From: a bacterium
GTDB lineage: Bacteria; Myxococcota; UBA727; JAUIJE01
Assembly (NCBI GenBank): GCA_030431455.1
Contig: JAUIJE010000018.1
Coordinates: 12,115-76,114, forward strand
Direction of reading: 5' to 3'
DNA length: 64,000 nucleotides
Shown: positions 1,756-50,490 of the stretch, piece by piece
How the letters are laid out: every line of letters starts with the position of its first letter
How positions within the stretch are numbered: position 1 is the stretch's first letter
Notes under the pieces: generated by a model
Seen by the model: only the letters and a program-made list of their open reading frames with translations
Databases searched by the model: none
Told to the model about the DNA's origin: nothing
Translations under genes and position numbers: made by a program

Positions 1756-1791
1756 CCCCCGCCGCAGCTTGGCCCCGCGCGACCTTGGGGC

Positions 1792-7921: not shown

Positions 7922-7948
7922 CGGCCGGAACCCCTTGGAGGCCAGCAG

Positions 7949-9493
7949 ATGGATCCCAAAGAACTCGAAGAAATCCTCAAAGCCCTCCGGGGCGAACTCG
8001 GTGAATTCGGCAAGACCCTCCTCGAGGACCGCGAGAAGATGGTCGCGCGTCTTGACGAGATCGACGGGCGAATCAACGACCTGCCGTCTTCCGGTTCGGA
8101 TGGCCAACTCAAACACCGCTGGGGCAACCCGGTCGCCGCCATTGCCGCCGGCAACCCCCTGGCCGCCAACCCCGAGGGCACCGCCGAGGAAGCGGTCGAG
8201 GAGCTGCGCGAGCGCGTGTCGAAGGAGCGCTCCGGCCACTTCGTGATGATGCCCAACGGCACCTTCGTCCCGGTGCTGAAGCGGTTCAGCGCCATCCGTG
8301 GCTCGCAGGTTCCCGCCCAGCAGCGCAACGCGCTCATGGCCGTCCGTCAGATGCGCGCCCTCGCTCTCGCCGTCTCGCAGGGCCGCGAACCCAGCGCCGA
8401 GAGCGCCCTCGCCGCCGCCCGCGGATGGGGTGACCCCGAGCTCCTCGGCGCGCTCGAGCACGCCCGCGACATGGTTCGCGGTCTGCGCTCGGGAGACCGG
8501 GAGCAGCGCGAAGCCTCCGAGCGCGCGCTTGGCACCGCCACCCTCGGTTCGGGCGCCAGCTTCGTGCCCGGCGAGTACTTCGGCGAGGTCATCGACTACC
8601 TCCACGACATGTCCGTCGTCCGGAGCTCCGGGCCCAGCATCCTGCCGATGTCCCGAGGGTCGCTGACCATCCCGTTCGTCGACAGCGCGGCGCAGGCCAC
8701 CTACGTCGGTGAGAACGCCGGCAGCAACGCCACCACGCTCGGCGACGCCGTGTTGAAGCTCGTGCGCAAGAAGCTGCAAATCATCTTCCCGCTGAGCAAC
8801 GAACTGCTCGCCGAAGCCAGCTATGCGGTCGATGCCTTCGTGCTCCGGCACATGGGCTACGTCGCTGCGGCGCGCGAGGACCTCGCGTTCATCCGCGGCG
8901 ACAAGACCGAGCACACGCCCGGCGGAATGAAGTACTGGGCCGAGCAGTCCAGCGCGGGCGGCGATGCTCACAACTTCAACCGCACCCTCGACACCGGCGC
9001 GCCCACCGTCCAGACCATCACCAACGACCTCATCAAGGCGCTGCGCATCCTCGAGGACTCGAAGGTCCCACTGATGATGGTGACCTGGTTCATGAGCCCG
9101 CGGGACTTCTGGGGCCTGGTGGCCAAGCGCGGGACCTCCACCGACACCGAGGTGTTCGCCGAGATGCGCGGCGGGACCCTCTACGGCCAACCGGTCAAGC
9201 GCTCGACCCAAATCCCGAAGACCCTCGCCGGCGACGCGTCGGGCACCGGGACCGGGAACAAGTCCGAGGTCTACTGTGCGGCGATGGGCAACAATGTCAT
9301 TGCCGAGAGCGACGGCGCCGAAATCACCGCGCAGAACGGTGTGGCGTACAAGAACGCGAGCGGCGTCGTCACCGCAGGCTTCACCGAAGACCAGACCGTG
9401 ATGAAGATGAACCGCTACCACGACTTCGGCGACCTCTACCGGGGCGCGTCGAACGTGCTCATCGAGTCCGTCGACTGGGGCGCCACCGCGTAA
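7949..9493 (+). CDS. major capsid protein, HK97 family
   Basis: 514 aa. N-terminal coiled-coil delta-like domain (MDPKELEEILKALRGELGEFGKTLLEDREKMVARLDEIDGRINDL). Position after the protease. Confidence 0.85.
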   Translation: MDPKELEEILKALRGELGEFGKTLLEDREKMVARLDEIDGRINDLPSSGSDGQLKHRWGNPVAAIAAGNPLAANPEGTAEEAVEELRERVSKERSGHFVMMPNGTFVPVLKRFSAIRGSQVPAQQRNALMAVRQMRALALAVSQGREPSAESALAAARGWGDPELLGALEHARDMVRGLRSGDREQREASERALGTATLGSGASFVPGEYFGEVIDYLHDMSVVRSSGPSILPMSRGSLTIPFVDSAAQATYVGENAGSNATTLGDAVLKLVRKKLQIIFPLSNELLAEASYAVDAFVLRHMGYVAAAREDLAFIRGDKTEHTPGGMKYWAEQSSAGGDAHNFNRTLDTGAPTVQTITNDLIKALRILEDSKVPLMMVTWFMSPRDFWGLVAKRGTSTDTEVFAEMRGGTLYGQPVKRSTQIPKTLAGDASGTGTGNKSEVYCAAMGNNVIAESDGAEITAQNGVAYKNASGVVTAGFTEDQTVMKMNRYHDFGDLYRGASNVLIESVDWGATA

Positions 9494-16455: not shown

Positions 16456-16458
16456 GCC

Positions 16459-30800: not shown

Positions 30801-31179
30801 CGCCGTTGAGAAGTTTTTCGATGGTGCCGGCCAGCACCTCCATGCCGAACGGCTTCGAGAGGTAGGCGTCGGCCGGGGTCTTGGACGCGCCGTGCCGCGA
30901 GAGGGCCTCGGGGGCGGCCGCGCCGCTGGTGAGGATGATCGGGATGTCTTTGAGCTCGGCGTGCTTTTTGAGTTTGTTGCACTCGGAAAAGCCACTCGAT
31001 GGTCCGCGCGGCAGCTCGAGGTTCAGCACCACCAGCTGGGCGGACACACCGCGCACAAAGTCGACCACGCTTTTGCTGCCGTCGTCGATCTGGGCGGTGA
31101 GGCCGAGGGAGCTGATCGCCTGCTCGACGTTGCTGGCGAAGTTGGCGTCGGGATCGATGATCGCCACGACATGAGACAC
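27877..31179 (-). CDS. FrzS/AglZ-type protein: N-terminal pseudo-receiver plus about 900-aa coiled coil
   Basis: The receiver fold retains T (PIILTSG) and K (YLSKPF), but the phospho-acceptor position reads LVVLNLELP (Asn instead of Asp). A Pro/Gly linker follows, then continuous E/L/A/Q/R heptad sequence to the C-terminus. Confidence 0.8.
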   Translation of the reverse strand: MSHVVAIIDPDANFASNVEQAISSLGLTAQIDDGSKSVVDFVRGVSAQLVVLNLELPRGPSSGFSECNKLKKHAELKDIPIILTSGAAAPEALSRHGASKTPADAYLSKPFGMEVLAGTIEKLLNGALVPGAAAAVADAPPADGGPPPLKSGEGAPGKPPALKKRGGPPKMPSTPRGGASLDELLAKARAGANLPPPPKAKGLEGRLESLRHNLTIKETDLKHAKELWTEREREFAQLQNQAELQGRELDRAKKAREDLVAQLTTAEDNIGSLKADVEIGRERAERLEREKGALAQELEDAQDHHEHQLSALEQRRAEVQAALEAEQTAHASTLSTKNAEVEDLQVELRSTRDDLANRMQQAEADKALAAEISAGLKAKIAELDVQLENTVASLNETTAHADRIAASLQKLREEKALGEQKSATQLEELHGQLKELASERSLLEDQLGSTRTALEERSKQLADARLQVTDLSSELAEAQSHSTDLSMRLDQSEARGANLTLELDESQQMLAEVREERTRLDSQLTGTRATLEKAENRIRSLEGELQKTRDHLAQTTAAFQEKVAQLEASLAETHASLESERERANRRTQELEARGLELTELTARLEAEIDARQREVADRDGRIGEWEQSFEAQKARMHELERAAHQEQARLQQALDNATAEGQELDGALARTRAKLAESESQVTESREKIADLTGRLRRKEAEGETLRAELAETKARIGDLEDALGREQDQVARLSAELNHEREEHQRDVLNRDSALAQTSQKASAQVDSLQSRLEEVAKKLSATEGSLAAAEERLSRTEHDLGETRANLDAEQRRAAALEDKVAVLDTELDSAKTRSEELQDENVRVKGLAEKAQKERDLFRRKAAQLEDQGSQRESTLVRDLEQIKKVAEDDKSRLGDELSTLKRARDEAQKSADEQKKNLVMVKRKYNDLVGQAKDLKGKLEERVKKVAGELGEEKEQRARERAKAKAEVDKLKAALRAAKDQAKAANDEELIQLKAAVQEKEERVAKLSQDVMDLREKNKALKQKGQELLQKAQAQQGAGDEYKSKYEEAVQKRAADQKKFKERYDALQDDYKKTREKLQKVMDRIKAAKEAKGKK

Positions 31180-31369
31180 GCGCTCCTCCTTGGCGCCGGC
31201 TGCCGCCGCCGCCTGGACCCTCTTTGCGGAGAGATCACCCCGGGATTTAAGCAGCTTTTGGGGGCCGAAACGAGTTCTCAGCGGACTGCCCCGTCCCGGT
31301 TATGTGCCCGGTTGTCCGACATGTTTTCGTATGGCAAGTCGGTAACAGCACCCACGCCCCCTGGAGGCA

Positions 31370-37050: not shown

Positions 37051-37575
37051 TCAGCCTTGGCCGAGCCGCTGCGCCACCGCGTGGAGCCGGGACGCGCTGA
37101 ACAAGTAGAAGATGCGATCGCCGAAGCCCAGGGCGTCGCCGTCGGCCACCGGAGACTCGCCGCCGGTGGGGACCGCGGCCCCGTTGACCTTGGTGCCGTT
37201 GCGGGACCCGGCGTCGGCGATGAACAGCCCCTCCGGCCGGATGAACACCCGCGCGTGGAGTTTGCTCACGTTGGGGTCACGAATCTGGACGTCGTTGGAC
37301 GAGGCGCGGCCGACGAGCACGGTATCCATAAAAGCGCCCTTTTTGGCTTTTCGGAGCGCCCAGCATTGGTCGTGGCCGTCGATCAGAATCGGGTCTTCGC
37401 CGGGCCGGGTCTGCAACGACTTCAAGCTCCCGGTGCGGAACGACCAGTCGTTCTCGTCGAGGGCCGGGCTGCCGACGAGAAACCAGTCGCCGTGCCGCTC
37501 GGCAAACTGCGCCGCCGTGGTGGCCAGCGCCTCGGGGATGAGGCTGGCAAGCTGCAGCGGATCAGTCTCGACCAT
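37051..37575 (-). CDS. FHA-domain protein (174 aa)
   Basis: VLVGRASSNDVQIRDPNVSKLHARVFIRPEGLFIADAGSRNGTKVNG is a canonical FHA signature. ATG at 37575; the track ORF extends further upstream. Confidence 0.75.
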   Translation of the reverse strand: MVETDPLQLASLIPEALATTAAQFAERHGDWFLVGSPALDENDWSFRTGSLKSLQTRPGEDPILIDGHDQCWALRKAKKGAFMDTVLVGRASSNDVQIRDPNVSKLHARVFIRPEGLFIADAGSRNGTKVNGAAVPTGGESPVADGDALGFGDRIFYLFSASRLHAVAQRLGQG

Positions 37576-39277
37576 GGGGGTGCTGTCCCGGTTCGTCTGG
37601 GGTTTCGCTGAGAGCTTGCACCAACGAACGCAGCGAATCCACCTGCTGGCGTTGTGAGGCAAGTTCCTCCTCGGCCCGGCGGCGGTCGGTGAGGGCGGCG
37701 GCGAGCTTCTTGCGCGTGTGTTCCGCCTCGGCGCGGTGCAGCTCCGCGCGCCGCCAGGTGTCGGCCAGGGAGGGCAGGTCATCGTCGTCGCCCGCGTGGG
37801 AGGCGAGCACCTCCTCCAGCCGCGCGGCCGTGACCCGGTGGGCGGCGGCCTCCTCGTCCAGGGCGCGCTGCGCTTGTTCGGCTTGGTGGCCATCGGTGGC
37901 GAGGGCCGCGAGCCGCGTCTCGAGGGCGGCGACCGCCGCGCGCAACCCGTCCCGGTCGCGCGTGATGTCGTCGAGGGCGAGCTTCAGCGCGTCGCGGTCG
38001 CGGCGGGCCAGCTCGAGCTGGTGCATGGTCTCGGCGTGGTGTTTGCGCTCGGTACGCAGGGCTTCGTCGTCGGGGCTGGGCGGGGGGCGGGACAAGAGCG
38101 CAGCGAGTTCGTCCTCGAGCTCGCCGATGCGGCGCTCGGCTTCGTCGCGCTCGAGCAGCGCGTTTTCGAGTTCGGACACGAGGTCGTGTTTGACCTGGGC
38201 GTTGGCCGGCCGGTCCCACAGGCCGGGGATGTCGTCGGCGTCCACGCCCGCCTCGGCCTTGAGCACCGCGCGCATCTTCTCGACCTGGATCAAGCTGGCG
38301 CGGTACCGCTTGTACAGGTCGTCGAGCTCGTTGAGTTTTTCGGCGTCCGCCTCGCGCTGGGCCAGGGCCTCCTCGGGGTCGACCACGCCGATCTCCAGCG
38401 TCGAGCCGAACGACGCGTCGAGGTCCTCGCTGACAAGCGCGTAGGGGGCCCGTTCGTGCTCTACGTCGGCCACCCGGATGAGGCGGGTCTCGAGCTCGCG
38501 CCGCTGGGTGCGCGCGTTTTTGAGTTTGCGCTGGAGCTCTTCGCAGGCCTTTTCGGTCAACCGCAGCTGGGCATCGCGGTCGCGCAGCTGGCGCCGCAGG
38601 TGTTGGTTCTTTTTCTTGAGCGCTTCTTTGCCCTCGAGCAGGCGGTCGCGTTCGGTGATCGCGTCCAGGGCTTGTTGGCGAAACACCGCCGTGCCTTGGT
38701 CGGTCTGGGCCCGCAGGGCTTTGACCTTCTGCTCGGACGCGGCCAAGGCGGTGCCGAGCGCGATGATGCGTTGCGCGTCGCTGGAGTCCCGCACCCCGTG
38801 CGCGGACTCGACGTCGAAGCTCCGCGCGCGCATCTCCTCGAGGGCGTCGGCCAGGCCCCGCGGCTCGAGCACCATGTCGATGGCCGCGACCAGATCCTCG
38901 CTCCGGGCGGGCAGGGGGAGCACGTCCCGGGCCCCGGCGTTGAACGCGCGGCGGTAGGCCTCGTCGAGCTCCGCCGGCACCAGCGCGATCACCGGCGCGC
39001 CGGCCGACGTACGCCGGGCGAACAGCAAGATCGCCTCGGGGGGGCGGCCGGTCGCGGAGAAGTCCAGCACCAACGCGTCCACCGTGGCCCCGGCCGAGAA
39101 CAGCTCGCTGGCCTCGTCCCCGTCTTGGGCGCACAGCAGGGTGTACCCGGTGCGCTCGACAAGCTCCCGGTGGAGCAGGGCTTGCCCGCCGACCAAGGCC
39201 ACGGTGTACCCCGCGCGCTCCCACAGGTCGCTGTCGGGCGGGCCGTCGTCGAACCGGTCGTCGGCGGAGGCGCTCAT
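37562..39277 (-). CDS. degenerate receiver domain plus coiled-coil protein (571 aa)
   Basis: The receiver-like N-domain lacks the acidic pair (ALVGGQ), the conserved T/S (IALVPAE) and the K (DVLPLP). A long heptad-rich region follows. The stop overlaps the FHA gene start by 14 nt. Confidence 0.7.
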   Translation of the reverse strand: MSASADDRFDDGPPDSDLWERAGYTVALVGGQALLHRELVERTGYTLLCAQDGDEASELFSAGATVDALVLDFSATGRPPEAILLFARRTSAGAPVIALVPAELDEAYRRAFNAGARDVLPLPARSEDLVAAIDMVLEPRGLADALEEMRARSFDVESAHGVRDSSDAQRIIALGTALAASEQKVKALRAQTDQGTAVFRQQALDAITERDRLLEGKEALKKKNQHLRRQLRDRDAQLRLTEKACEELQRKLKNARTQRRELETRLIRVADVEHERAPYALVSEDLDASFGSTLEIGVVDPEEALAQREADAEKLNELDDLYKRYRASLIQVEKMRAVLKAEAGVDADDIPGLWDRPANAQVKHDLVSELENALLERDEAERRIGELEDELAALLSRPPPSPDDEALRTERKHHAETMHQLELARRDRDALKLALDDITRDRDGLRAAVAALETRLAALATDGHQAEQAQRALDEEAAAHRVTAARLEEVLASHAGDDDDLPSLADTWRRAELHRAEAEHTRKKLAAALTDRRRAEEELASQRQQVDSLRSLVQALSETPDEPGQHPHGRD

Positions 39278-39348
39278 CGGCCCCCACCATAGCCAAACCG
39301 GCGGCCCAGCGGTTGCACAACCTCCGGTGGCTGGTTCAGACTGAGGGC

Positions 39349-40005
39349 ATGCGCGTACACATCGTGAGTTGGCTCCTGCTGTGCGGGGCACCGGCCTTGG
39401 CCCAGGATGCGGGGCTGGACGCCGGCCTGGATGCGGGGTTGGACGCCGGCCTCGACGCCGGCATCGACGCGGGCTTGGACGCCGGCATCGACGCGGGGCT
39501 GCCCGATGTCGACCCGGGCCTGCCCGACGCGGCCATCAACCTGCCCGACGCCGCCCTCGATCTGCCCGACGCGGCCCTCGATCCCCCCGACGCGGCCCTC
39601 GATCTGCCCGACGCGGCGGTCGATCTGCCCGACGCCGCGATCAACCTGCCCGATGCCGCCGTCGACCTGCCCGACGCCGCGATCAACTTCCCCGACGCCG
39701 GCGATGGCCTGGTCGACGGGGGCGATGGACCGCCGCCCCCGCCGCCCCCGCCGCCGCCCGATCCCTGCACCCCTGGGTGCATCGACGGCACCACCGCCTC
39801 GCTGTGCAGCGAGAGCGGCCAGACCATCGCCCTGGTCTGTGACCTCGACCAGGTCTGCCAAGACGGCGACTGTGTGGCCGGGCTCGCCGGTGGGCCCGGC
39901 GGGTGCCTGTGCGCGGGCTCTTCCGCCGATGTCGCCAGCGCGGGCGGGCTGCTCGCGATGTTGTTCTGGCTGCGCCGTCGCCGACGTGGGAGAAGGCGGG
40001 GGTGA
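39349..40005 (+). CDS. secreted repeat protein with MYXO-CTERM-like sorting tail
   Basis: Signal peptide VSWLLLCGAPALAQ, 8 x DAGx, 10 x 7-aa PDAAxxL-type repeats, a P10 run, a Cys-rich module, then GGCLCAGSS...GGLLAMLFWLRRRRRG. Confidence 0.7.
   Translation: MRVHIVSWLLLCGAPALAQDAGLDAGLDAGLDAGLDAGIDAGLDAGIDAGLPDVDPGLPDAAINLPDAALDLPDAALDPPDAALDLPDAAVDLPDAAINLPDAAVDLPDAAINFPDAGDGLVDGGDGPPPPPPPPPPDPCTPGCIDGTTASLCSESGQTIALVCDLDQVCQDGDCVAGLAGGPGGCLCAGSSADVASAGGLLAMLFWLRRRRRGRRRG
39406..39711 (+). repeat. coding tandem repeats: 12-bp x8 (DAGL/I) then 21-bp x10 (PDAA[ILV][ND][LPF]-type)
   Basis: Read directly from the DNA and its translation. Confidence 0.85.
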
Positions 40006-41168
40006 CCGACCGCCGCATCCTCCTGCTCGATGACGAGCCCGCGGTGCTCGGGGTGTTGTCGGACTACCTCGCCGCCCCGGGCATCGAAATCTTCACCTGC
40101 CAAGAGATCGAGGCGGCGGAAGCCATCCTCGGCGCCCAGCGCTTCGACGTGGTGGTCACCGACCTGCGCGTGTCGGAGCTCGGTGGCCTCGAGGGCATGC
40201 GCCTCATCCGGTACGTGGCCACGCACTTCCCCGAGACCACGGTCCTGGCCATGAGCGGCTACGTCAACGACGACGTGCACGCCCTCGGCCGCGCGGTGGG
40301 GGCGACGGCGATCCTTGAAAAGCCGATCGATCTGCGCCGCCTCCGCCGCTACATCCACGGCGACGAAGGCCCCAGCACCGAGGGCGAGGACGGCGCGGTC
40401 TGGCAGATCGAGCTGCTCGACGACTTCCTCGAAAAGCGCGTGATCCGGGCGTTGCTCCAGCCCATCGTGAACATGACCACCGAAGGCCCGCCCTTCGTCG
40501 CGCACGGTTACGAGTCGTTGGCCCGGGCCCCCGCGGGGACACCCTTGCGCAACCCCGAGATCTTGTTCGCCTACGCGTCGCTCAAGGAGCGGCTGTTCGA
40601 GACCGATCTGCTGTGCATCGAGGCCGCGCTCAAGGAGGGCGCCACGCTCACCCCGGGGAGCAAGCTATTCATTAATACCCAGCCCCGCTCGATGACCAAC
40701 CGGATGTTCGTCACCCGGGTGGAAGAACTCATCGACGCGTCGGGCCTGGGCCGCGATCGCATCGTGTTCGAGCTCACCGAGCAACAGACCATCGTCAATC
40801 CCCAGGCCTTCGCCAAGACGCTGAGCAAGCTCCGCGAGGTCGGTTTCGGCATCGCGCTCGACGATTACGGGGTCGGGTTCGCCAACCTGCAGTTGGTCCA
40901 AGACCTGCGGCCGGACTACATCAAGATCTCCGGCTATTTTTGCAATAACATTGAGAACGACGAGTTCAAGCAGACCGTGCTCCGGAGCACCGCGGAGATG
41001 GCCGGGCGGCTGGGCATCCCCACCATCCTGGAGAACGTCGAGACCAAGTCCGAGCTCGAGGTCGTGGCCTCGCTGGGCGTGACCTACGGGCAGGGCTACT
41101 ACTACGCGCGGCCGGCGCCCTGGGATGAGCTGTGCGCGACAGATCGGTTCGTGGGGCCGCCGACCTGA
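40002..41168 (+). CDS. response regulator (canonical REC) with EAL phosphodiesterase domain
   Basis: REC motifs: LLLDDE, VVVTDL, LAMSG, LEKP. EAL motifs: YESLAR, FINT, ELTE, DDYGVG, ENVE, GQGYYY. GTG start in a GTGA overlap with the upstream stop. Confidence 0.85.
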   Translation: MTDRRILLLDDEPAVLGVLSDYLAAPGIEIFTCQEIEAAEAILGAQRFDVVVTDLRVSELGGLEGMRLIRYVATHFPETTVLAMSGYVNDDVHALGRAVGATAILEKPIDLRRLRRYIHGDEGPSTEGEDGAVWQIELLDDFLEKRVIRALLQPIVNMTTEGPPFVAHGYESLARAPAGTPLRNPEILFAYASLKERLFETDLLCIEAALKEGATLTPGSKLFINTQPRSMTNRMFVTRVEELIDASGLGRDRIVFELTEQQTIVNPQAFAKTLSKLREVGFGIALDDYGVGFANLQLVQDLRPDYIKISGYFCNNIENDEFKQTVLRSTAEMAGRLGIPTILENVETKSELEVVASLGVTYGQGYYYARPAPWDELCATDRFVGPPT

Positions 41169-42040: not shown

Positions 42041-44005
42041 TCAGCGGTCGTCGGCGTTGACGAACTCGAGCACGGTCTCGGTCTCGTTCAGCTCGATCAG
42101 CCGGCCGGTCGCCCCCGACACCCCGATGAACACCCGCCGGACCGGGCGCGGGGGGTCGTTGTCGTTGACCCCGGGCAGGAACACCTCGGCCCCGGCGGCG
42201 GCGGTGAGCACCAGCCCTTCGCGATCGAAACCGTCGAGGTTGGTGAGGGTTTGTTCTTGCGCGAAGAACACGTCGATGGGCTGCACGTTGGACGCGAGCT
42301 CGGCCACGACCTGGCTGCCGAGGTCGGGGGGGCCGCCGGCGGCCCGTTGGAGGGAGAAGTCCATGTGGGGCTGGACCAACACCCGCGGTTCGCGGTCGTC
42401 GTCGTCAAAGTGGAGCCGGCCGAGGTAACCCGCCTCGCTCGAGGTGACGGTGAAGGCGTCGTCGACGAACACGCTGGCGGTGAAGGGGCCGTACAGCTGG
42501 AGGCAGGCTTGCTCGTCGGGGGTGAGCCCCACCAATGTCACGTCATCGCCGACCACGTCCGCGATCGGCTTTTGCAAAAACCCGTCTGCGGGGCAGCGGT
42601 CGTCGTCGCTGGCGACGGGAATGAACAACAGGTCGCCGGGCAGCACGTCACGCTGCTCGAAGGGGCGGCCGTCGTTGTCGATGACGATGGCGCCCATCGA
42701 ATAGGACGCGGTGCGGCCGCGGGTCCGCGGCGGGCTGCCGCCGTAGGTGAACGTCAGGGTCAGGCCGGGCTCGACAAAATCGAACCGCGGCGGTTCGCCC
42801 AGAGTGTCGCGCTCGCGCTGGATGAGCGTGGGCGCCCGCGCGGTGTCGTCGCTGCTGGTGAGGAAGGCCGGGTTGGCGCCGCCGTCGCGCTGGGCGTAAC
42901 CAGGGCCGGGGGGAAAGGTGTCGATGAGCCGGAACACCCCGCGGCGCCCGTCGGGGCGTTCGCCGTCGAAGCGCAGGTATTGCCCGTGGCCGTTTTCGGA
43001 CAAGACCAGGGCCCAGGCCTTGGTCGCCTCTTCGTCGGGGAAGCCGACGGAGGGCGGGCAGCACACCGTGGGGTCGGTCTCGGCGGTGTCGGCGGCGTCG
43101 GGGATGTAGACCGCGGCCCCGTACTCAAACAGCTGGGCCGAGCCGAGCACGGCGTACGCGTCCTCGCGGTAGGTCGGGCGCAGCAGGCGCAACGCCACCG
43201 CCCGCGGCTCGTCGCGGCGCAGGACGATGGCGACCGGGCCCAGCCCGTCGCCCGGGTCGACCAGGCCGGTCGCGACCTCGACGGTGGGGCCGCCCACGTC
43301 GAGGGAGCGGTCGTAGGTGCTGTCCTGGGCCCGAATCACGTGCACGGTGTCGAGCAAGGCATCGGTGACCACCACCGCGTCGCCGGTGGGATCGACCGCG
43401 AGGCGCGCGGGGTGCGCGCCGGTGGGCAGCTCGACGACCGCGTCCGCGAGCAGGGCGCCGTCGCGCGGGTCGAGGTCGAACACTTCGACGTGGCCCGGGT
43501 CGGGCACGGCCACGAACACCCGCAGGGTCTCGTCCACCAGCACCGCGGTGACGTCGGACGGGGCGCGGCCGGTGCGCACCCCCGCGCCCACGTAGGTAAA
43601 CGCGTCGCCCCGGCTGTCGCCGGTGGTGCGCAACAGGTGGACGGTGTCGTCGTGGCTGTCGAGGGTGACGACCCGGGTCTGGTCCCCGGGGGCGACCGCC
43701 AGCTGGGTGGTCATGGGGCCGGTCTGGACCGCGAGCGGAAAAAACCCGTTGGGGCTTTTGACGAAGGTGCGGTTGTACGCATCGTAGATGCGCAGCTGCC
43801 GGATCTCGGGGTTGGCGGTGACGACGTAGACCGGCGGGGGCACGCCGATGTCCACCGGGCGCACCACCACGACGTCCCCGACGCGATCGATGTCGCCGCG
43901 GAAGGAGTCGTTTTGGTTTTGTTGGCAGAAGGGGACCTGGCCCATGCCCCCGAACAGCAGGGGACAGAGCGCGAAGAACAAGCGGGTGCGCGTGCGGCGG
44001 GTCAT
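42041..44005 (-). CDS. exported protein, beta-propeller-like (654 aa)
   Basis: Signal-like N-terminus RLFFALCPLLFGGMG. Repetitive beta-strand-rich sequence with recurring D-x-V-x-V/L-D motifs. ATGA-coupled to the upstream gene. Confidence 0.6.
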   Translation of the reverse strand: MTRRTRTRLFFALCPLLFGGMGQVPFCQQNQNDSFRGDIDRVGDVVVVRPVDIGVPPPVYVVTANPEIRQLRIYDAYNRTFVKSPNGFFPLAVQTGPMTTQLAVAPGDQTRVVTLDSHDDTVHLLRTTGDSRGDAFTYVGAGVRTGRAPSDVTAVLVDETLRVFVAVPDPGHVEVFDLDPRDGALLADAVVELPTGAHPARLAVDPTGDAVVVTDALLDTVHVIRAQDSTYDRSLDVGGPTVEVATGLVDPGDGLGPVAIVLRRDEPRAVALRLLRPTYREDAYAVLGSAQLFEYGAAVYIPDAADTAETDPTVCCPPSVGFPDEEATKAWALVLSENGHGQYLRFDGERPDGRRGVFRLIDTFPPGPGYAQRDGGANPAFLTSSDDTARAPTLIQRERDTLGEPPRFDFVEPGLTLTFTYGGSPPRTRGRTASYSMGAIVIDNDGRPFEQRDVLPGDLLFIPVASDDDRCPADGFLQKPIADVVGDDVTLVGLTPDEQACLQLYGPFTASVFVDDAFTVTSSEAGYLGRLHFDDDDREPRVLVQPHMDFSLQRAAGGPPDLGSQVVAELASNVQPIDVFFAQEQTLTNLDGFDREGLVLTAAAGAEVFLPGVNDNDPPRPVRRVFIGVSGATGRLIELNETETVLEFVNADDR

Positions 44006-45339
44006 CGTCCGTCCTCCGGGGGGGGCGCGGGCAACCCGATGCGGCCCTTGGGGGCCAAGCGGACCTCACCCTCGTCGTCGACGAGATCGAGCACGCTCAC
44101 GGAGTTGTCGAGGAAGTTGCTCACGTAGACGACCGGGGTGGGGCCGGCGTCGTCGACCACAATGTCGTAGGGCCCGCGGCCGAAGTCGGCGACTTGGTCG
44201 GTGACCGACAATGTATAGGGATCGAGGGCCATCACGGTGTCGGAGGAAAAACAGGTGACCAGGAGGCGGTCGACGACCTCGCCCCGGGCGTTGGTCTGCC
44301 GGATGGTCCGCGCCGCGATGGGCTCGCGGCAGCTCGGGCCCACCCCCCCGAGGGAGATGTCGAGGTCGTTGCCGTCGCGCACAAGATCGAGGCGCACCAC
44401 CGCGTCGGGGGCCCGGGTGAGCACAAACAGCGCGTCCCCGTCGGGGCTGGCGGCCAAGGCCCGGGCGGACTCGGCCCCGGTCTCCGCGTACAGGTCGAAG
44501 CGGCGGATGACGGTGTCGTCGCCGGCCGCGGGGTCGAACCAGTAGATGAGCGCGGCGGTGCGGGTCGAGCTCAGGCGGATGCGGTCGGCGCTGGCCAGCA
44601 CCAGGGGGCGGTCGCCGGGCAGGCCCACCGCGGCGCGGGTCCCGATGATGTCGTCGCCCACGGTCTTGCGGAACAGCCGAATGCGGTCGTCGCCGGTGCG
44701 CTCCGGTCGCAGGAAAAAGAACACCAAGTCGGGTGAGCGCAACAGCGCGGCCACGCCGGAGATGAGCGTCGGGGTCTGCTCGTACAGCACCAGGTCGAAG
44801 GGGTCGTTGCCGGGCAGGGCGGCCGCGTACGGCGTCTGGCCACAAAGCGGGGCGGCTTGCCCGGGCTCGGCGTCGACCCCGCAGGACAGGTCGAGCGATC
44901 CGCCGGCGGCGTCGATGAGCACCTCGGCGAGGAGGTTGTCCTCGCGGATGGCGGTGAGCATGTGGCCGCCGTCGTCGGTGATCACCGGGCGGTTGCCAAA
45001 GGAGGGGAACAGCACCGCGCTGTCGTAGGCGTCGTCGACGACCGCGATGTCCGGGTCGGGGGCGTCGGCCAACATCGCGGCCACTTTGTCGAGGTCGGCG
45101 ACGAGCAGCGCGCCGGTGTTGTAGCGCAGGTCGTAGTTGCTCGAGACCACCACCAGGGCGCGCTCGGTGGTGTGCAGGGCCATGCCGGTGGGGAACGAAG
45201 GCTGGTCGAGGGGGACGTCGGACCCGGTGTTGGCGGGATCGATGCCGCTCCCGGCACAGCCGACGAGGGCGAGGGTACAGACGAGGGGGGACAGCAGGCA
45301 GCGCACCAAACCGCTATACAGATTTTTGGCGGGATGCAA
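44002..45339 (-). CDS. lipoprotein, YncE/beta-propeller-like (445 aa)
   Basis: Lipobox LALVGC. GRGPYDIVVDDAGPTPVVYVSNFLDNSVSVLDL resembles YVTN/LVIVD-type propeller blades. Confidence 0.6.
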   Translation of the reverse strand: MHPAKNLYSGLVRCLLSPLVCTLALVGCAGSGIDPANTGSDVPLDQPSFPTGMALHTTERALVVVSSNYDLRYNTGALLVADLDKVAAMLADAPDPDIAVVDDAYDSAVLFPSFGNRPVITDDGGHMLTAIREDNLLAEVLIDAAGGSLDLSCGVDAEPGQAAPLCGQTPYAAALPGNDPFDLVLYEQTPTLISGVAALLRSPDLVFFFLRPERTGDDRIRLFRKTVGDDIIGTRAAVGLPGDRPLVLASADRIRLSSTRTAALIYWFDPAAGDDTVIRRFDLYAETGAESARALAASPDGDALFVLTRAPDAVVRLDLVRDGNDLDISLGGVGPSCREPIAARTIRQTNARGEVVDRLLVTCFSSDTVMALDPYTLSVTDQVADFGRGPYDIVVDDAGPTPVVYVSNFLDNSVSVLDLVDDEGEVRLAPKGRIGLPAPPPEDGR

Positions 45340-45446
45340 AACGCTCCCGTCGCGATTGTCGGGGAGCCTTTGTTGCTTTTGCCCGAGGGCTGGTAACGTC
45401 CCGGGCCACGATCGCCCGCGACGTGCAGGGAGGAGGACCGACCGCC

Positions 45447-48400
45447 ATGGCGGTGCGCTTCGGCGACTTCATGCTCCAGCAAGAGCTCGGCACGTCCGAC
45501 GTGGCGGAGCGTTTTCGGGCCATGCACGACAAGCTTGGCGGTCCATATTTCGTCAAGCGGTACCACGGTCTCGACGGCGCGTTCCTGCACGACCTCGCGT
45601 TTCGGTGTGAACGCTTGATGTCGGTCAAGCACCACGCGCTCGCGCCCCACCTCGGCCACGGCGAGGTGGACGGCGTCGTGTTCGTCGTGTCCCCGATGCT
45701 CGACGGCATCGACCTCGCAAGCTTCGTCGACAGCCTGCGCGAACGGCGCGTGATTCTGCCCGTCACCGCGATCTTGTACATCCTGCGCGAGGTCGCGCTC
45801 GCGGTCGACGCGCTCCACCGCGCCGACCGCGCGCTCGCCCACGGCGACGTCACCGCCCGTCACATCCGGCTCGGCCCCGCGGGCGAGGTCTGGCTCACCG
45901 GGCTGACCACCCCCCGCGGCGACGGTCCCGGCGTCGCGTGCGACCCCGTGTGGGACGGGGCCGGCATCGGCGCCACCGTCTACGACCTGATCGGCCTGAC
46001 CCGGCCCCAACGCGAGCGCCCTCCGCTGCCGCACGCCCTCGACCGGCTGGTCCGGCGCGCGCTCGGCATCGGCGCCCCCTCCGACCGCGTCTCCGCCCGG
46101 GAGCTGGCGGAGGGCCTGGAGGAGGTCGCCGCGGGCATGAACGCGAAGCTGCACCCGGGCATCCTCGCAGAGGTCGCGCACCGCACCATCGAGGCCGTGC
46201 GCCGGGCCCGCGCGCACACCGCCGCGGACCAACTGCCCACCCTGGAGCCGATCCCCGCCGCCGCCGATGCCCCGGCCGCGCCGCCCCCCGACGAGGCCCC
46301 GGCGGCCCCGCCCGCGCCCCCCGCCCCGGCCGAGGTGGCGCCCCCGCCGGCCGCGGCCGCGCCCCCGCCCGCGCCCCCCGTCGACGAGGCCCCGCCGTCG
46401 GCGGACGCGCCGGTGACGTCCCCGGCCTTCCCGGTGCCCGGCCTGCGGGCGAAGGGCTCGCCCCCGCTGCCCAAAAAGCGGCGCAAGCCAGACCCCGCCC
46501 CCGAGGCGCCGCCGCCCGCCCCCGCCGCCTCCGTCGAGGGCCCGGCCGAAGACCTCGTGCCCCCGCCCACGCCGGACTTCGCCGACGCGGCCGACTTTTT
46601 CGAGAGCAACGCGACCTCGCAGACCTCGCCCGAGCTGTTGGCGCTCGTCGAGGACAAGACCCTCCCGCTGGGCATGCCCGACGCGACGAGCAAAGGGTCG
46701 GGGGACAACACCGTCGAGGTGCCGCTGCCACCCAAGATTCCGTCGGAGTCTCCCCCCCCGCGGCGCCGGCCGAAAAAGACCCCTTCGCTGGCCGACCTGC
46801 CGCCCGACATCGATCCCATCTTCCGGCCCCAGCCGCTCGCGGATGTGTCCGACGAAGCCGACCACGGGTTCGACGCGATGTTCGGCGGGTTGTCGGAGGT
46901 CGCGGCCGAGCGTCCCAAACGCCGCGGCGGCGGCCTGCTCGTCGACCCCCTGACCACCGATGGCGCCGCGCTCCTCGACGGTGGACCGCCCACCGTGCCG
47001 GTCAAGCCCCTCGGCGCCGCCGACAAGACCGACGAGGTCGGCGCCGAGCCCGACGCCTCCCCCGTCGAGGCCCGCACCGCGTTGGCCGACGGCGCGGGCT
47101 CCACCGACGAGACCTCGTCACCCTCCCAGGCCGAGCCCGACGTCGACCCGTCGTCCAGCGACGAGCCGCCCCCCGCCCCCGCCGACGCGCTCCCCCCGCC
47201 GCCGGTGGGCGGGCTTGTCGATCCCCCCGGCCCCGCCGACAACGACCTCGGCGCAGGGCCCAAAACCGGCACCTACGATCTCAACCCCACCGACGACCGA
47301 GCGGTGGCCGCCCTGCTGCGGCGGGGGCGCATCACCCACGCCCAGCTGGAGTCGGCCAAAGGGTCCCAGTCCCAGCGGGGGGGGCGCCTGGTCGACGTGC
47401 TCGTGTCCGAGGGGGTGGTGACCGAGACCGCGATCGCGGACATCCTCGCCGACGAAGCGGTCAAGCAGCGCATCTCTGCAGAAGCATTGGACAAGCGGGT
47501 GCCGTCGCCGGACATGACCCGCCGGCTCCCCGAGACCTTCGCGTCCTCCCGTCGCATTTTGCCCCTGACCGCGCCCGCAGATGGGCCGCTGGTGGTCGCG
47601 GTGGCGGACCCGTTCGACGACGCGTCCATCGACGAGGTCCGCCGCATTTACAAAAAGAAGCTGGTGCAGGTGCACGTGGCCGAGCGCAGCGCCCTCAGCC
47701 GCGCCATCGCCCGGGCGTACGGAGCGTCGGCGAGCGGGCCGCTTCCCGGGGTGTCCCAGGGCCAGCAGGTGGTGCTCCTGTGTCTCGACGACGACGCGCT
47801 GCTGCGGCGGGTGGGGGCCCGGTTCGTCGACGAGGGCTTCGCGGTCGAACACGCCGCCAGCGGTCACCTCGCCCAACGCATCCTCGAGAAGGGCTCGCCC
47901 GACGCCGTGCTCTGTGCCTACACATTGCCGGGCGAAGTCGGCGGCGAGGACGTGTTGCTGACCACCCGGCAAAGCCCCCAGCACGACGACACCCCGTTCT
48001 TCATGTTCGGTGAGGACGCGGAGGGCGAACTCGAAGCCAAGGTCCTCGACCTCGGCGCGGACGATTTTTTCACCGCCCCCTACAACCTCGACGTGATGGT
48101 GCGGAAGCTCCGCCGGGCCATGGGCAAACACTCGCGCAAGATGCGGCCCGCGCCGGGGCCGGGGGCCGAGGTGCCGTACCCCGAGCTGTCCGTCGATGAG
48201 ATGGCCGGGCTCGCGAGCGCGCCGGTGGGCAATCCCCTCGACGACCCGTTCGGGGCGGTGGTCACCGATGTCCCCGCCGAGCCCACCGGGGTGATGGGCA
48301 CCCTGCGCCAGATGGCGGTGTCCGAGATCGTGCAGTCCCTCGAGCTGGGGCGGAAGACGGCGCGGGTCGAGCTGGTGCCCAACAACGGCGACGGGGGACG

Positions 48401-48611
48401 GTTTTGGTTTCGGCTCGGGCAGATCGTGTACGCGGAGTGCGGCGACCTGCTCGGCGAGGAAGCGTTCTTCGCCCTCGCGCGCAACACCCAAGGGTTCTTC
48501 CGCATCTCGTACGGTGACGACGCGGAGGAGACCAACATCGAAAAACCCACCACGTTCTTGTTGCTCGAGGCCATGCGCCGCATCGACGAGGACATCGCGC
48601 CGGACGCGTAG
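45447..48611 (+). CDS. multidomain scaffold: pseudokinase (STK-like) - Pro-rich linker - T2SSE_N/MshEN - pseudo-receiver - DUF4388 (PATAN)
   Basis: The ATG at 45447 is preceded by GGGAGGAGG. The kinase-like fold reads AHGDVTARH for HRDxKxxN and LTGL for DFG. The MshEN-like stretch is RLVDVLVSEGVVTETAIADILADE. The REC-like region has LDDD but AVLCAYTLPG (no Asp) and FFTAPY (no Lys). DUF4388-like: GTLRQMAVSEIVQSLELGRKTARVEL. Confidence 0.8.
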   Translation: MAVRFGDFMLQQELGTSDVAERFRAMHDKLGGPYFVKRYHGLDGAFLHDLAFRCERLMSVKHHALAPHLGHGEVDGVVFVVSPMLDGIDLASFVDSLRERRVILPVTAILYILREVALAVDALHRADRALAHGDVTARHIRLGPAGEVWLTGLTTPRGDGPGVACDPVWDGAGIGATVYDLIGLTRPQRERPPLPHALDRLVRRALGIGAPSDRVSARELAEGLEEVAAGMNAKLHPGILAEVAHRTIEAVRRARAHTAADQLPTLEPIPAAADAPAAPPPDEAPAAPPAPPAPAEVAPPPAAAAPPPAPPVDEAPPSADAPVTSPAFPVPGLRAKGSPPLPKKRRKPDPAPEAPPPAPAASVEGPAEDLVPPPTPDFADAADFFESNATSQTSPELLALVEDKTLPLGMPDATSKGSGDNTVEVPLPPKIPSESPPPRRRPKKTPSLADLPPDIDPIFRPQPLADVSDEADHGFDAMFGGLSEVAAERPKRRGGGLLVDPLTTDGAALLDGGPPTVPVKPLGAADKTDEVGAEPDASPVEARTALADGAGSTDETSSPSQAEPDVDPSSSDEPPPAPADALPPPPVGGLVDPPGPADNDLGAGPKTGTYDLNPTDDRAVAALLRRGRITHAQLESAKGSQSQRGGRLVDVLVSEGVVTETAIADILADEAVKQRISAEALDKRVPSPDMTRRLPETFASSRRILPLTAPADGPLVVAVADPFDDASIDEVRRIYKKKLVQVHVAERSALSRAIARAYGASASGPLPGVSQGQQVVLLCLDDDALLRRVGARFVDEGFAVEHAASGHLAQRILEKGSPDAVLCAYTLPGEVGGEDVLLTTRQSPQHDDTPFFMFGEDAEGELEAKVLDLGADDFFTAPYNLDVMVRKLRRAMGKHSRKMRPAPGPGAEVPYPELSVDEMAGLASAPVGNPLDDPFGAVVTDVPAEPTGVMGTLRQMAVSEIVQSLELGRKTARVELVPNNGDGGRFWFRLGQIVYAECGDLLGEEAFFALARNTQGFFRISYGDDAEETNIEKPTTFLLLEAMRRIDEDIAPDA

Positions 48612-48631: not shown

Positions 48632-48662
48632 AAAAAAGCGCGGGACCGGCCCGCGCGTTTTT
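48632..48662. terminator. bidirectional intrinsic terminator
   Basis: AAAAAA-GCGCGGG-ACCGG-CCCGCGC-GTTTTT, between convergent genes. Confidence 0.6.
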
Positions 48663-48679: not shown

Positions 48680-50326
48680 TCAGCGGATGGAGCGGATCGA
48701 GTTCATCGCGTTTTGGTGCAGCATGTTCATGATGTTGGACAGCGCTTGGAGCACCTGTTGGATGTCCTGGGTCATGGACTTGATCTCTTCGGCGATCAAC
48801 GTGCGGCTGCGGTGCACCTGGTTGGTCGACTGGTCGCCGTAGTCGGCGTTGGGCGCGTCCGGGGTCGGGGCGGCGTCGGTGGCGGCGGCGGCGTCGGTCT
48901 TGGGGCCCGCCGACCGCGCGGCTTTGTCGCCCTCGGCGTGCTGCATCACGATGTCGGAGGCGGTCTTGAGCCCCTTCATCTTGGTGCCCAGGTCTTCGTC
49001 CTTGTTGGTGAACACATCCACAATGTAACTGGCCAACTTGCCGGGGATGCCCTCCGCCCCGCGCAGGGCGCCGGCCAAGGGGCTGTTGGCGGACTGGGCC
49101 TCGCCCGGATCGATCTTCTTCTCGATGTCGACCTCGACGTCGTACTGCTTGAGCACTTTTTGGCCCCACTCGAGGATGGGCCCGAGGTCGCTGTTTTTGC
49201 CCGCGGGCAGGTCGGGGGACGACAGCAGCGCGTGGGTGATCGACGCGGCCATCAAGTGGTCGGCGGGGGGCCCCACCACGGTGAGCTCTTCGAGCTTGCT
49301 CGCGATGCGCATCGCTTCGTTGCGGTTGATGATGCCCTCGCCGTGTTTGCCGATGTACTCCATCTGCGGCCGGCCGTCGGGGCCGCGCAGCACGTTGCCC
49401 TGGTCGTCCTTTTTGACCCGCGCGGTTTCGTAGTCGCGCTTGAGCGCGGTGTCGGCGGCGTTGACCACCTTCTGGACCACCTGCGCGGTCTGGCCCGCGA
49501 CGTGTTCGTCAAAGTCGGCCACCCCGAGGGTGGTGTCGAGTTGGTCTTGTTGCTCTTGTTTGACCTGGGTCTTGTTGAGTTCGCGCTTGTTGAGCTCCTC
49601 GTCGACGCGCTGGAGCTCTTTCATCTTCTCGGCCATGTCCATTTCCATGTTGGCGACCATCATCAACATGAACGCGGCGAGGATGTCCTCGAAGGTGCCG
49701 CCCTCGGCGAGCAGCTTGGACAGGCGGGCGGCGTAGGGATTCTGCGGGCGCGCGGTCTGGATTTCTTCGAACTCGCCCATGGTCTCGCGAATCTCGGGCT
49801 CGGCCATCTTTTTGCGCATCGGTGCGCGGGCGTTGGTGTCGAGCTTGATGTCGCCGTCTTTGCTCGCGCCGAACACCGCGTCGGTCAGCAGCGCCTGCAA
49901 AAACGGGGGCGCCGCGTCCATGGCGGTGAACAGCTCCTGCAGCAGCTTTTTGGTCACCCGCGGGGCCTTGGTGAGGACCTTGAGCGAGTGCTCGAATTGG
50001 GTCCGGCGTGACTCGACCCCGGCTTGGTCGAGGACCTCGCCCGGGCTGAGATCCCGGACGGGCACATTGAGCGACTCGGCGAACAGCGCGCGGGTGTCGT
50101 CGTCGACAACGAACAGGTCCTGTTGCAGCGCGAGCTTCAGCCCGTCGACGACCAACGCCTTGTCGGCCGCGGGCAGGGCGTCGAGGCCCTGGAGCATGGT
50201 CTGCGCTTCCGCCTTGGTGACCTGCTTGCCGCCGGCCGACCCCTCGTCGACCGCGATGCCCAACTTCTCCAACGTGGTGGTGAGGTTGGCCAGGTTCTTC
50301 ATCATGTTTTGTGGGGGGATGCGCAT
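48680..50326 (-). CDS. hypothetical all-alpha protein (548 aa) with Met-rich hydrophobic segment and Q/N-rich amphipathic C-terminus
   Basis: ATG at 50326 (MRIPPQNMMKNLANL...). Internal ILAAFMLMMVANMEMDMAEKM. The C-terminus is QQVLQALSNIMNMLHQNAMNSIRSIR. No family recognised. Confidence 0.6.
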   Translation of the reverse strand: MRIPPQNMMKNLANLTTTLEKLGIAVDEGSAGGKQVTKAEAQTMLQGLDALPAADKALVVDGLKLALQQDLFVVDDDTRALFAESLNVPVRDLSPGEVLDQAGVESRRTQFEHSLKVLTKAPRVTKKLLQELFTAMDAAPPFLQALLTDAVFGASKDGDIKLDTNARAPMRKKMAEPEIRETMGEFEEIQTARPQNPYAARLSKLLAEGGTFEDILAAFMLMMVANMEMDMAEKMKELQRVDEELNKRELNKTQVKQEQQDQLDTTLGVADFDEHVAGQTAQVVQKVVNAADTALKRDYETARVKKDDQGNVLRGPDGRPQMEYIGKHGEGIINRNEAMRIASKLEELTVVGPPADHLMAASITHALLSSPDLPAGKNSDLGPILEWGQKVLKQYDVEVDIEKKIDPGEAQSANSPLAGALRGAEGIPGKLASYIVDVFTNKDEDLGTKMKGLKTASDIVMQHAEGDKAARSAGPKTDAAAATDAAPTPDAPNADYGDQSTNQVHRSRTLIAEEIKSMTQDIQQVLQALSNIMNMLHQNAMNSIRSIR

Positions 50327-50490
50327 GTGATCCTCGTGCAGAAGGGGACGCGGTGTATTGCGCCCAGGGGCCGATTTTGGCCGACGGGACGCGCCCACAT
50401 CAGCCTACAATAGAGTGTCGGCGGCCCGGGGGCGGGGTTGTGTGCTTATACTCCCTTGAAAAAAAGGGAAAATCGGCGGACACCGCGGCC

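Follow-up and report, generated by a model that had tools for sequence, protein, structure and literature searches.

A pseudokinase-MshEN-pseudoreceiver-PATAN protein of uncultured Myxococcota that may serve as an enzymatically inert adaptor

A 64,000-nucleotide stretch of DNA from a member of the Myxococcota (contig JAUIJE010000018.1; the whole of this stretch is called the window below, and all coordinates refer to it) carries at positions 45447..48611 a gene whose 1054-residue product joins a kinase-fold domain, a Pro/Ala-rich linker, an MshEN domain, a receiver (REC) domain, and a PATAN/DUF4388 domain, in that order. Our analysis favors, with a probability of roughly 60%, an enzymatically inert cytoplasmic adaptor for which PATAN is the output. 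The kinase, MshEN, and receiver modules are all without key residues, and a protein-docking adaptor is therefore the most likely assignment. As read from the alignments, none of the four modules has the residues for catalysis, for phospho-acceptance, or, in the clade to which the protein belongs (clade A), for binding of cyclic di-GMP (c-di-GMP). The initial annotation of this gene had proposed that every signaling module in the protein was converted into a binding module, and that idea has been strengthened, since the MshEN module too looks degenerate. The domain order proposed there is also borne out: Pfam, run on the full protein, places MshEN at residues 680-762 (E 1e-16), Response_reg at 778-888 (6e-9), and DUF4388 at 951-1048 (1.4e-20), and a structural model supplies the kinase fold. 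The gene and its parts are as follows.

45447..48611, plus strand: complete gene from the ATG at 45447 through the stop codon at 48609-48611, 1054 codons without the stop
45428..45437, plus strand: Shine-Dalgarno-like sequence GGGAGGAGGA, 9 nt before the ATG, found by direct reading of the sequence
45447..46229, plus strand: predicted Hanks-type pseudokinase domain, residues 1-261 (phmmer, profile, AlphaFold2 (AF2), Foldseek, motif table)
46221..46256, plus strand: short linear motif AADQLPTLEPIP where the linker begins, residues 259-270 (family pattern AD.(I/L)P.L.P(V/I))
46230..47297, plus strand: Pro/Ala-rich linker, residues 262-617, ~355 aa, 23% Pro and 16% Ala, weakly conserved
47298..47456, plus strand: MshEN_N subdomain, residues 618-670 (motif 1, SQRGG spacer, motif 2; aligns with the XpsE, PilF, and MshE N-domains)
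47457..47741, plus strand: MshEN_C (T2SSE_N1-like) subdomain, residues 671-765 (PF05157 at 680-762; alignment to XpsE 2d28 and PilF 6f8l)
47772..48125, plus strand: predicted pseudo-receiver (REC fold), residues 776-893 (PF00072, PDB alignments, family tabulation)
48126..48278, plus strand: REC-PATAN linker, residues 894-944
48279..48596, plus strand: PATAN/DUF4388 domain, residues 945-1050 (PF14332, conservation, AF2)
48638..48656, both strands: bidirectional intrinsic-terminator-like hairpin between the gene and its convergent downstream neighbor

Relatives of the protein were collected by an exhaustive hidden Markov model (HMM) search with an N-domain profile against 1.84 billion representatives, which was used instead of a word-index homology search with the N-domain alone that had returned two partial proteins. 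The profile search gave 21 clusters at E <= 1e-30, followed by a small second tier and then by generic kinases. Proteins of the second tier have the same architecture, namely an N-domain with no Pkinase match and then MshEN, REC, and DUF4388. The kinase-like N-domain and PATAN are combined in 43 proteins, and the family comprises about 40 cluster representatives. All members come from uncultured Myxococcota, and in vivo work will therefore need a heterologous host. These relatives are proteins of metagenome-assembled genomes (MAGs) that carry names such as 'DUF4388 domain-containing protein' and 'response regulator'. Homology searches and a contig scan with clade A-specific patterns turned up no cultured organism or characterized member among them. 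They divide into two sister clades of identical architecture, clade A with the query and clade B, and a Pkn11-type protein with an active kinase, P0038, is a collinear cousin.

The N-domain was related to kinases by both sequence and predicted structure. With phmmer it matches PknE of M. tuberculosis (E 1e-5), with AHGDVTARHIRL aligned on THRDVKPENILV, and a 15-sequence family profile matches PknI (E 1e-4, 24% identity). The AF2 model of the N-domain has a predicted local distance difference test score (pLDDT) of 92 and a predicted template-modeling score (pTM) of 0.89. When this model was compared with the PDB by Foldseek, the best 50 of 1,995 matches (E <= 0.001) were all protein kinases with template-modeling (TM) scores of 0.63-0.72, the best being GAK (6e-14) and PknI (6e-13, 24% identity, TM ~0.7). 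The predicted model thus confirms a bilobal protein-kinase fold. The Pfam Pkinase family (PF00069) gave no match with the whole protein at E up to 1 or with the N-domain alone at E up to 10, and six clade B members were likewise unmatched by it.

For the catalytic residues, 40 family N-domains were aligned with active kinase domains from the same search and with P0038. The Gly-loop of the query, LGTSDVAE, keeps only the first Gly, which is present in 31/32 members of clade A and in 0/8 of clade B; in the family the second Gly is replaced by Ser or Thr and the third by Ala, Glu, or Asp. The β3 Lys (K37) is kept in 38/40 members. At the column of the αC-Glu, Glu is found in 9/9 active kinases and Arg in 40/40 family members (R53 in the query), an assignment that depends on the alignment. 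The HRD motif is H132-G133-D134 in the query (HGDVTARH), with Gly for the HRD-Arg throughout the 40. Residue 134, the position of the catalytic Asp, is acidic in most members and varies among D, E, A, and N (Ala in 4/40, Asn in one more), so the catalytic base itself is not invariant, while H132, G133, and H139 are. The catalytic-loop Lys has become Ser, Thr, or Gly, and the catalytic Asn has become His (H139) in 40/40. At the DFG position the query has G152-L-T, and the DFG-Asp is Gly in 39/40. The TPRG sequence (residues 155-158) follows directly (...WLTGLTTPRG...), and the ~22-residue activation segment that runs from 'DFG' to the P+1 'TP' in P0038 and the active kinases is deleted. The initial annotation had picked out ELGTSDVAERF, AHGDVTARH, and LTGL by eye as the degenerate kinase motifs, and the alignment with active kinases proves those assignments correct. 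With neither Mg ligand, no Lys-Glu pair, and no activation loop, the N-domain is well supported as a pseudokinase, predicted to be without the residues for productive Mg-ATP binding. The domain as a whole has a mean column identity of 64%.

To our knowledge, MshEN is one of just three widespread c-di-GMP receptor domains. In the query, PF05157 scores 61.2 bits against a cutoff of 23.1 and aligns across the four-helix N subdomain and the α/β C subdomain with the XpsE, PilF, PilB, and MshE structures; the alignment with XpsE runs end to end (residues ~612-765, E 6e-8). The c-di-GMP-binding unit of MshEN is made up of two tandem 24-residue motifs and a 5-residue spacer (Wang et al. 2016, PMC5013675). 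The query has the full 53-residue layout, with motif 1 being RAVAALLRRGRITHAQLESAKGSQ (618-641), the spacer SQRGG, and motif 2 RLVDVLVSEGVVTETAIADILADE (647-670). Only the second of these 24-mers had been located before, correctly, and the first was missed along with the spacer. The strict motif positions are matched at 7/11 in motif 1, which has R1, Ala at position 2, L17, Lys at position 21, and Q24, and at 8/11 in motif 2, which has R1, L2, I17, L21, and Glu for Gln at position 24, a Gln that is not conserved across clade A. Both motifs carry Val at position 3 (V620, V649). The initial annotation had counted the second motif as fitting the consensus at most positions, but the Gly-to-Val change at position 3 that it had let pass is the critical one and is found in each of the two motifs.

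The importance of this position was established with MshE, in which the backbone NH of the position-3 Gly bonds guanine O6/N7 and a side chain would not fit (PMC5013675). In V. cholerae MshE, binding was undetectable for the G11L variant, abrogated for G11I, which had the strongest in vivo defect, and 72-fold weaker for G40I (PMC5013675). The same study ascribed the lost binding of D. geothermalis MshEN-III to G40E, described XpsE as a natural non-binder with G11V, I19R, L29R, and G40L among its changes, and kept Gly3 fixed in its relaxed search motif too (PMC5013675). The GSPII-A domain of T. thermophilus PilF, which has one degenerate motif, does not bind c-di-GMP (PMC11731258). Certain deviations from the consensus do still bind the ligand (Wang et al., PMC5013675; PMC11731258).

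Across the family, position 3 is non-Gly in both motifs in 32/32 clade A members and Gly in both motifs in 7/7 clade B members and in P0038. The NCBIfam model NF053729 (c-di-GMP_motif, cutoff 38 bits) separates the clades in a similar manner. Clade B and P0038 score 51-63 bits, and clade A scores 22-42 bits, with the query at the top and the others at 21.7-35.7. For the query itself, the score is 34.8 bits with the full protein and 41.7 bits with the isolated 53-mer, so that a census by motif count or by HMM would call it a c-di-GMP receptor (41.7 vs 38 bits) despite its missing decisive residues. Because both Gly3 residues are replaced in clade A while clade B and P0038 keep both, c-di-GMP binding was probably lost in the clade of the query. 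The initial annotation had proposed that this region binds c-di-GMP. With Val at Gly3 in both motifs, the G11L, G11I, and G40I data, and the example of the non-binder XpsE (G11V/G40L), this proposal is not supported as it stood, and the sequence makes it unlikely that the query still usefully binds the ligand. Some residual or altered nucleotide binding by this MshEN may persist. The MshEN of clade A is strongly conserved (RGGR..EILV), which argues that the domain is kept for another role. One further match to the relaxed motif, at residue 788 (RVGARFVDEGFAVEHAASGHLAQR), was judged to be due to chance because it falls within the α1-β2 region of REC.

The receiver fold is recognized by PF00072 (E 6e-9, 36.5 bits vs a cutoff of 30.2), and 41 PDB receivers match the query REC at E <= 1e-4. 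In the alignment with these solved receivers, LCAYTLPG falls on ICDVLLPG, MFGE on MLTA, and TAPY on AKPF/TKPF. The query accordingly has A824 for the acceptor Asp (CheY D57), G855 for Thr87, and A877 for Lys109. The absence of the Asp and of the Lys had been noted before; the Thr proves to be gone as well. In the family the acceptor Asp is found in 2/33 clade A members and in 0/8 of clade B (Glu in 4/8), the Thr is Gly in 31/33 of clade A, and the Lys is left in 1/33 of clade A and 2/8 of clade B. By these residues the domain is a pseudo-receiver, which would not be phosphorylated on the canonical Asp.

PATAN is a widespread, barely characterised output domain tied to type IV pilus control. 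The DUF4388-like C-terminus of the initial annotation is confirmed by PF14332, which scores 74 bits against a cutoff of 25 (E 1.4e-20) and covers profile positions 2-120 of 122. Conservation within the protein is highest in these ~105 C-terminal residues, which have many invariant columns and align with the DUF4388 domains of REC-DUF4388-TPR proteins. The AF2 model has a pLDDT of 90 and the order β-α-β3-α-β-α. A PDB fold search with this model gave no significant relative (best E 0.1, TM ~0.3), and the confident model therefore gives no hint of a hidden enzyme. PATAN, which is the same domain as DUF4388/PF14332, binds in cyanobacteria to the N-terminal (MshEN-containing) half of PilB1 and to the N-terminal domain of PilC, and PATAN alone is sufficient for phototaxis reversal (bioRxiv 10.1101/2021.06.11.447907). 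This cyanobacterial PilB/PilC binding is the sole experimentally supported mechanism of PATAN. In M. xanthus, the PATAN protein SgnC is needed for social motility (bioRxiv 10.1101/2021.06.11.447907). A separate and larger group of REC-DUF4388 proteins from metagenomes (P0021-P0037) was also encountered; about half have Pfam-detected TPR repeats (700-1100 aa), and one is from Anaeromyxobacteraceae. These proteins share the REC-then-PATAN order, and their REC scores are canonical (for example P0024, REC E 2e-26).

The linkers that join the four modules are disordered and harbor two conserved short motifs. The presence of a long Pro/Ala-rich linker after the kinase fold had been reported correctly, but with a length of ~250 aa, where ~355 aa is measured; in orthologs the length is 197 to 376 aa. 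The AD.(I/L)P.L.P(V/I) motif at the start of this linker is a conserved island in a variable region and is kept in 20/20 orthologs. A second motif, (F/L)DDLP(D/E)L, stands before PATAN in most orthologs (the L001-L010 loci), and the query has a weak version of it, SVDEMAGL, at residues ~914-921. Both are candidate docking motifs.

Several features of the gene bear on whether its product is real. The boundaries and length of the open reading frame (ORF) given in the initial annotation, 45447-48611 and 1054 aa, are confirmed by the start, the stop, the Shine-Dalgarno-like sequence, the N-termini of orthologs, which align with ATG 45447 within one to three residues, and a GC content of 0.87 at third codon positions in DNA of 70% GC. 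The upstream neighbor is divergent and the downstream neighbor convergent, and the gene is therefore monocistronic; the GC-rich hairpin at 48638-48656, just past the stop, has T-runs on either strand. A scan of the 107-nt divergent intergenic region for sigma-70 promoters found none, such a scan being uninformative for Myxococcota. Public metatranscriptome and metagenome runs contain a ~99.5% identical strain, in which the gene differs at 17 sites, 14 synonymous and 3 nonsynonymous; of the latter, one is V77I and the other two fall in the linker. The ORF is a functional protein-coding gene under purifying selection. Contigs from the metatranscriptomes tile the gene, and its transcription is weakly supported, because the depth of these contigs is low, flat, and equal across the neighboring genes, so that carry-over of DNA is possible. 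The locus or its ~99.5% identical strain is present in aquaculture biofloc samples (biofloc/aquatic metatranscriptomes X3-X5 and metagenomes X1-X2). This environment is a possible source for enrichment or for expression analysis from raw reads.

How the family arose can be read from its clades. The degeneracy of kinase and receiver is common to clades A and B. On the most economical account of these sequences, the common ancestor already had a dead kinase and a dead receiver, and the loss of c-di-GMP binding came afterwards and was confined to clade A. The two clades, with canonical motifs in 7/7 and both glycines replaced in 32/32, amount to a natural paired experiment. Two questions thereby become testable in vitro: whether Gly3 is an absolute determinant beyond MshE, and what role a ligand-blind MshEN has. 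A more elaborate account would have a Pkn11-like c-di-GMP-responsive kinase regulator turn stepwise into a non-enzymatic scaffold in which MshEN is the in-cis partner of PATAN, that is, a PilB-mimic switch (closed, or with PATAN free for a pilus or secretion motor) that is set by docking on the pseudokinase and linkers and not by a small molecule. We regard this complete scenario as quite unlikely.

The alternatives to an adaptor differ in how much of the protein they take to be working. The most radical of them, in which the ORF is either a pseudogene in decay or a product of chance in GC-rich DNA and the degenerate motifs mean lost function, draws on the frequency of spurious long ORFs at 70% GC and on the degeneracy of all enzymatic motifs. 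Against it stand about 40 full-length relatives with the same order, the same specific substitutions, and many invariant residues, as well as the 14 synonymous and 3 nonsynonymous strain variants, the gene's own Shine-Dalgarno sequence and terminator, the confident AF2 models, and the third-position GC of 0.87. The conservation pattern effectively refutes it, and we give it a negligible probability. It is very unlikely, if somewhat less so, that the N-domain is an atypical active kinase or a CASK-like, Mg-independent nucleotide-dependent switch, so that the protein would be a signaling enzyme steered by its C-terminal modules. Nucleotide binding without canonical motifs is a property of CASK and STRADα, and some such pseudokinases are atypically active. 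Both proteins are among the structural neighbors of the N-domain, as weaker ones, and the retained K37 (38/40), the invariant H132, G133, and H139, the acidic residue 134 of most members, and the strong conservation of the domain (64% mean column identity) would suit such an activity. The same alignment has the catalytic Asp as Ala in 4/40 and Asn in one more, an invariant Arg for the αC-Glu, neither of the Mg ligands (Asn and DFG-Asp), no second or third Gly in the Gly-loop, and a deletion of the whole activation/P+1 segment, and the Pfam Pkinase family goes undetected at E up to 10. Cation-independent nucleotide binding of the STRADα/CASK kind may nevertheless be within the reach of this domain.

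The model that follows the initial annotation most closely keeps MshEN as the working sensor: it would still bind c-di-GMP, if more weakly or in an altered way, and the ligand would switch the PATAN output, with pseudokinase and pseudo-REC as accessory docking modules. We consider this model doubtful. It can call on the full 53-residue layout with Arg1 in both motifs and strict matches of 7/11 and 8/11, on the 41.7 bits of the isolated segment against the NF053729 cutoff of 38, and on consensus-deviating motifs that bind all the same (Wang et al.; PMC11731258). The canonical motifs of the sister clade and of the Pkn11-type cousin also make c-di-GMP sensing the probable ancestral function, and a REC-EAL gene that looks active lies nearby, here and in three MAGs. 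The decisive position speaks the other way. The query has Val for Gly3 in each motif, all members of the clade (32/32) have another residue there, and even the relaxed search motif makes this Gly obligatory. Binding is lost or weakened in the G11L, G11I, and G40I variants, its loss in MshEN-III is ascribed to G40E, and XpsE, with G11V/G40L, does not bind. In addition, the motif-2 Gln24 is replaced by Glu in the query and is not conserved in the clade, and NF053729 gives 34.8 bits for the full-length query and 22-36 bits for the other clade A members tested.

If the protein is an inert adaptor, it would act solely through protein-protein contacts. PATAN would be the output module and, by analogy with the cyanobacterial case, would dock on a machine of the PilB/PilC or the GspE type. 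The protein's own MshEN may be a ligand-independent interaction module like the N-domain of XpsE/GspE, and, being PilB-N-like, it could be an in-cis partner, a decoy, or an autoinhibitor for PATAN. Upstream inputs, such as active Ser/Thr kinases, would dock on the pseudokinase and on the two linker motifs. The least certain step is the target, which by the same analogy might be a type IV pilus, a type II secretion-type machine, or a polarity module. A number of observations weigh against the adaptor. The cyanobacterial PATAN analogy is the sole source of the link to a pilus machine, and pilus, secretion, and MglA/B genes were found neither in the window nor in the conserved neighborhood. MshEN retains its 24+5+24 layout, the Arg1 of each motif, the motif-1 Gln24, and the majority of the hydrophobic positions, and its isolated segment exceeds the NF053729 cutoff (41.7 vs 38 bits). 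A connection with c-di-GMP is hinted at solely by the REC-EAL gene, which is close by in the window and also in three MAGs. The β3 Lys of the N-domain is kept (38/40), and its catalytic loop usually has an acidic residue, as in some nucleotide-binding or atypically active pseudokinases such as CASK and STRADα.

The gene lies in a conserved block that reads DUF507 / two β-propeller-repeat proteins (minus) / the gene described here (plus) / a 572-aa protein (minus) / a TPR protein (plus) / DUF1178 / Fe-ADH / RadA. This block is seen in several Myxococcota MAGs, where the orthologs are ~42% identical, and the synteny of the gene is conserved in five MAG loci (L001, L005, L006, L007, L008). The conserved neighbors were dropped as an explanation of function: the housekeeping genes RadA and DUF507, which are 66-80% identical in the same loci, are equally syntenic, and the synteny may therefore be purely vertical. 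The neighbors discussed here are as follows.

39903-41168, plus strand: REC-EAL protein with intact receiver residues and ESLAR, ELTE, DDYGVG, ENVE, and QG signatures
42041-44005 and 44002-45339, minus strand: two overlapping genes divergent from the gene described here, no Pfam match, weak YVTN/PQQ β-propeller repeats
48680-50398, minus strand: 572-aa protein, convergent, no Pfam/NCBIfam match

From its intact REC and EAL signatures, the first of these is probably an active phosphorylation-controlled c-di-GMP phosphodiesterase. Its gene is found 4.3 kb upstream of the one described here, and in L004-L006 a ~71% identical counterpart is near the ortholog of the latter, but on the other side. 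The β-propeller pair is syntenic in L001 and L005-L008 at 31-38% identity, and its second member (44002-45339) has a hydrophobic, Cys-containing, lipoprotein-like N-terminus. The 572-aa protein is syntenic at 24-30% identity, and its sequence is charged-rich and helical-looking.

Further from the gene, the protein encoded at 37562-39535 (minus strand) begins with a REC-like domain that is weakly matched (NCBIfam E 3e-5, no Pfam) and lacks the acidic pair; predicted coiled coil makes up the next ~400 aa. This layout recalls the M. xanthus motility regulators FrzS and AglZ, and the flanks fetched for the related loci contained no homolog. A 1140-aa protein at 27877-31299 (minus strand) has an N-terminal REC (E 8e-8) as its sole recognizable domain, with the remaining ~980 aa unannotated. 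The first part of the window (1-~24000, plus strand) is a phage-derived block, probably a prophage or its remnant, with Phage_portal at 1756-3144 (E 7e-41), Phage_capsid at 7922-9493 (E 1.5e-19), and a 921-aa Laminin_G_3 protein at 16456-19221 that is a possible tail fiber.

Myxobacteria commonly have multidomain proteins in which modules are degenerate, and a specialist's surprise at this one should therefore be moderate. What the protein offers is MshEN and PATAN joined in one chain with a dead kinase and a dead receiver, and a literature search did not find MshEN together with a pseudokinase. Each of its modules can be set beside a known system. For the N-domain, the closest bacterial neighbor in structure and sequence is the kinase domain of PknI (PDB 5m06-5m09, 5xka; TM ~0.7), the PDB constructs of which include engineered catalytic-loop mutants. 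Its Gly-loop, LGASAMGEVY, is non-canonical and akin to the LGxSAVADRY of the family. Unlike the query, PknI has a longer activation segment, is a membrane receptor kinase, and is without MshEN, REC, or PATAN. The MshEN module resembles the N-domain of XpsE/GspE (PDB 2d27/2d28), with which it shares the motif-1 Gly-to-Val change, Arg at position 11, and Lys or Arg at position 21. In XpsE, which forms the N-domain of a secretion ATPase, further positions are lost (R38G, L54H, L58C, Q61V), whereas the query keeps Arg1 and the motif-2 Leu/Ile positions and has no attached ATPase. With regard to the C-terminal half, the PatA-type regulators (PixG, PixE, LsiR, PatA) also have PATAN next to REC and use PATAN as the output. 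Their order is PATAN and then a phosphorylatable REC, in chemotaxis-like systems, whereas the query has REC and then PATAN, with a pseudo-REC; no che/tax genes were found in its neighborhood. The PatA-type proteins are also without MshEN or a kinase-like domain and belong to an unrelated, cyanobacterial lineage.

The initial annotation did not recognize the architecture from characterized proteins, and none of those matches it. Close plans have nevertheless been catalogued. Supplementary Table 4 of Wang et al. 2016 (PMC5013675) lists 'Pkinase-MshEN-UNK-REC' (Stigmatella aurantiaca PKN11) and 'MshEN-HD-GYP-REC-DUF4388' (MXAN_2809), and some DUF4388 proteins carry GspE_N (PF05157) (Han et al., bioRxiv 10.1101/2021.06.11.447907). 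By its listed domain description, which is the only ground for the comparison, MXAN_2809 shows that the C-terminal order MshEN ... REC-DUF4388 of the query occurs in Myxococcales, but it lacks the kinase-like N-domain and includes an HD-GYP phosphodiesterase domain. The Pkn11-type P0038 is collinear with the query (BLASTP kinase 1e-8, MshEN 4e-8, C-terminal REC 2e-6), has a Pro-rich linker between kinase and MshEN as the query does, and already has a non-Asp residue (Glu) at the acceptor position of its REC. In contrast to the dead kinase of the query, that of P0038 is intact (Pfam Pkinase 1.2e-35, HRDVNPSN, DFG, full activation loop), and its MshEN motifs are canonical RLG/KLG...Q where the query is without Gly3 in either. 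P0038 further lacks PATAN and has a region of ~330 aa of unknown type between its MshEN and REC; the query has no such region and has gained a C-terminal PATAN. What is new relative to these proteins is the order pseudokinase-MshEN-pseudoREC-PATAN, which is unlisted, and the clade-specific loss of both motif glycines.

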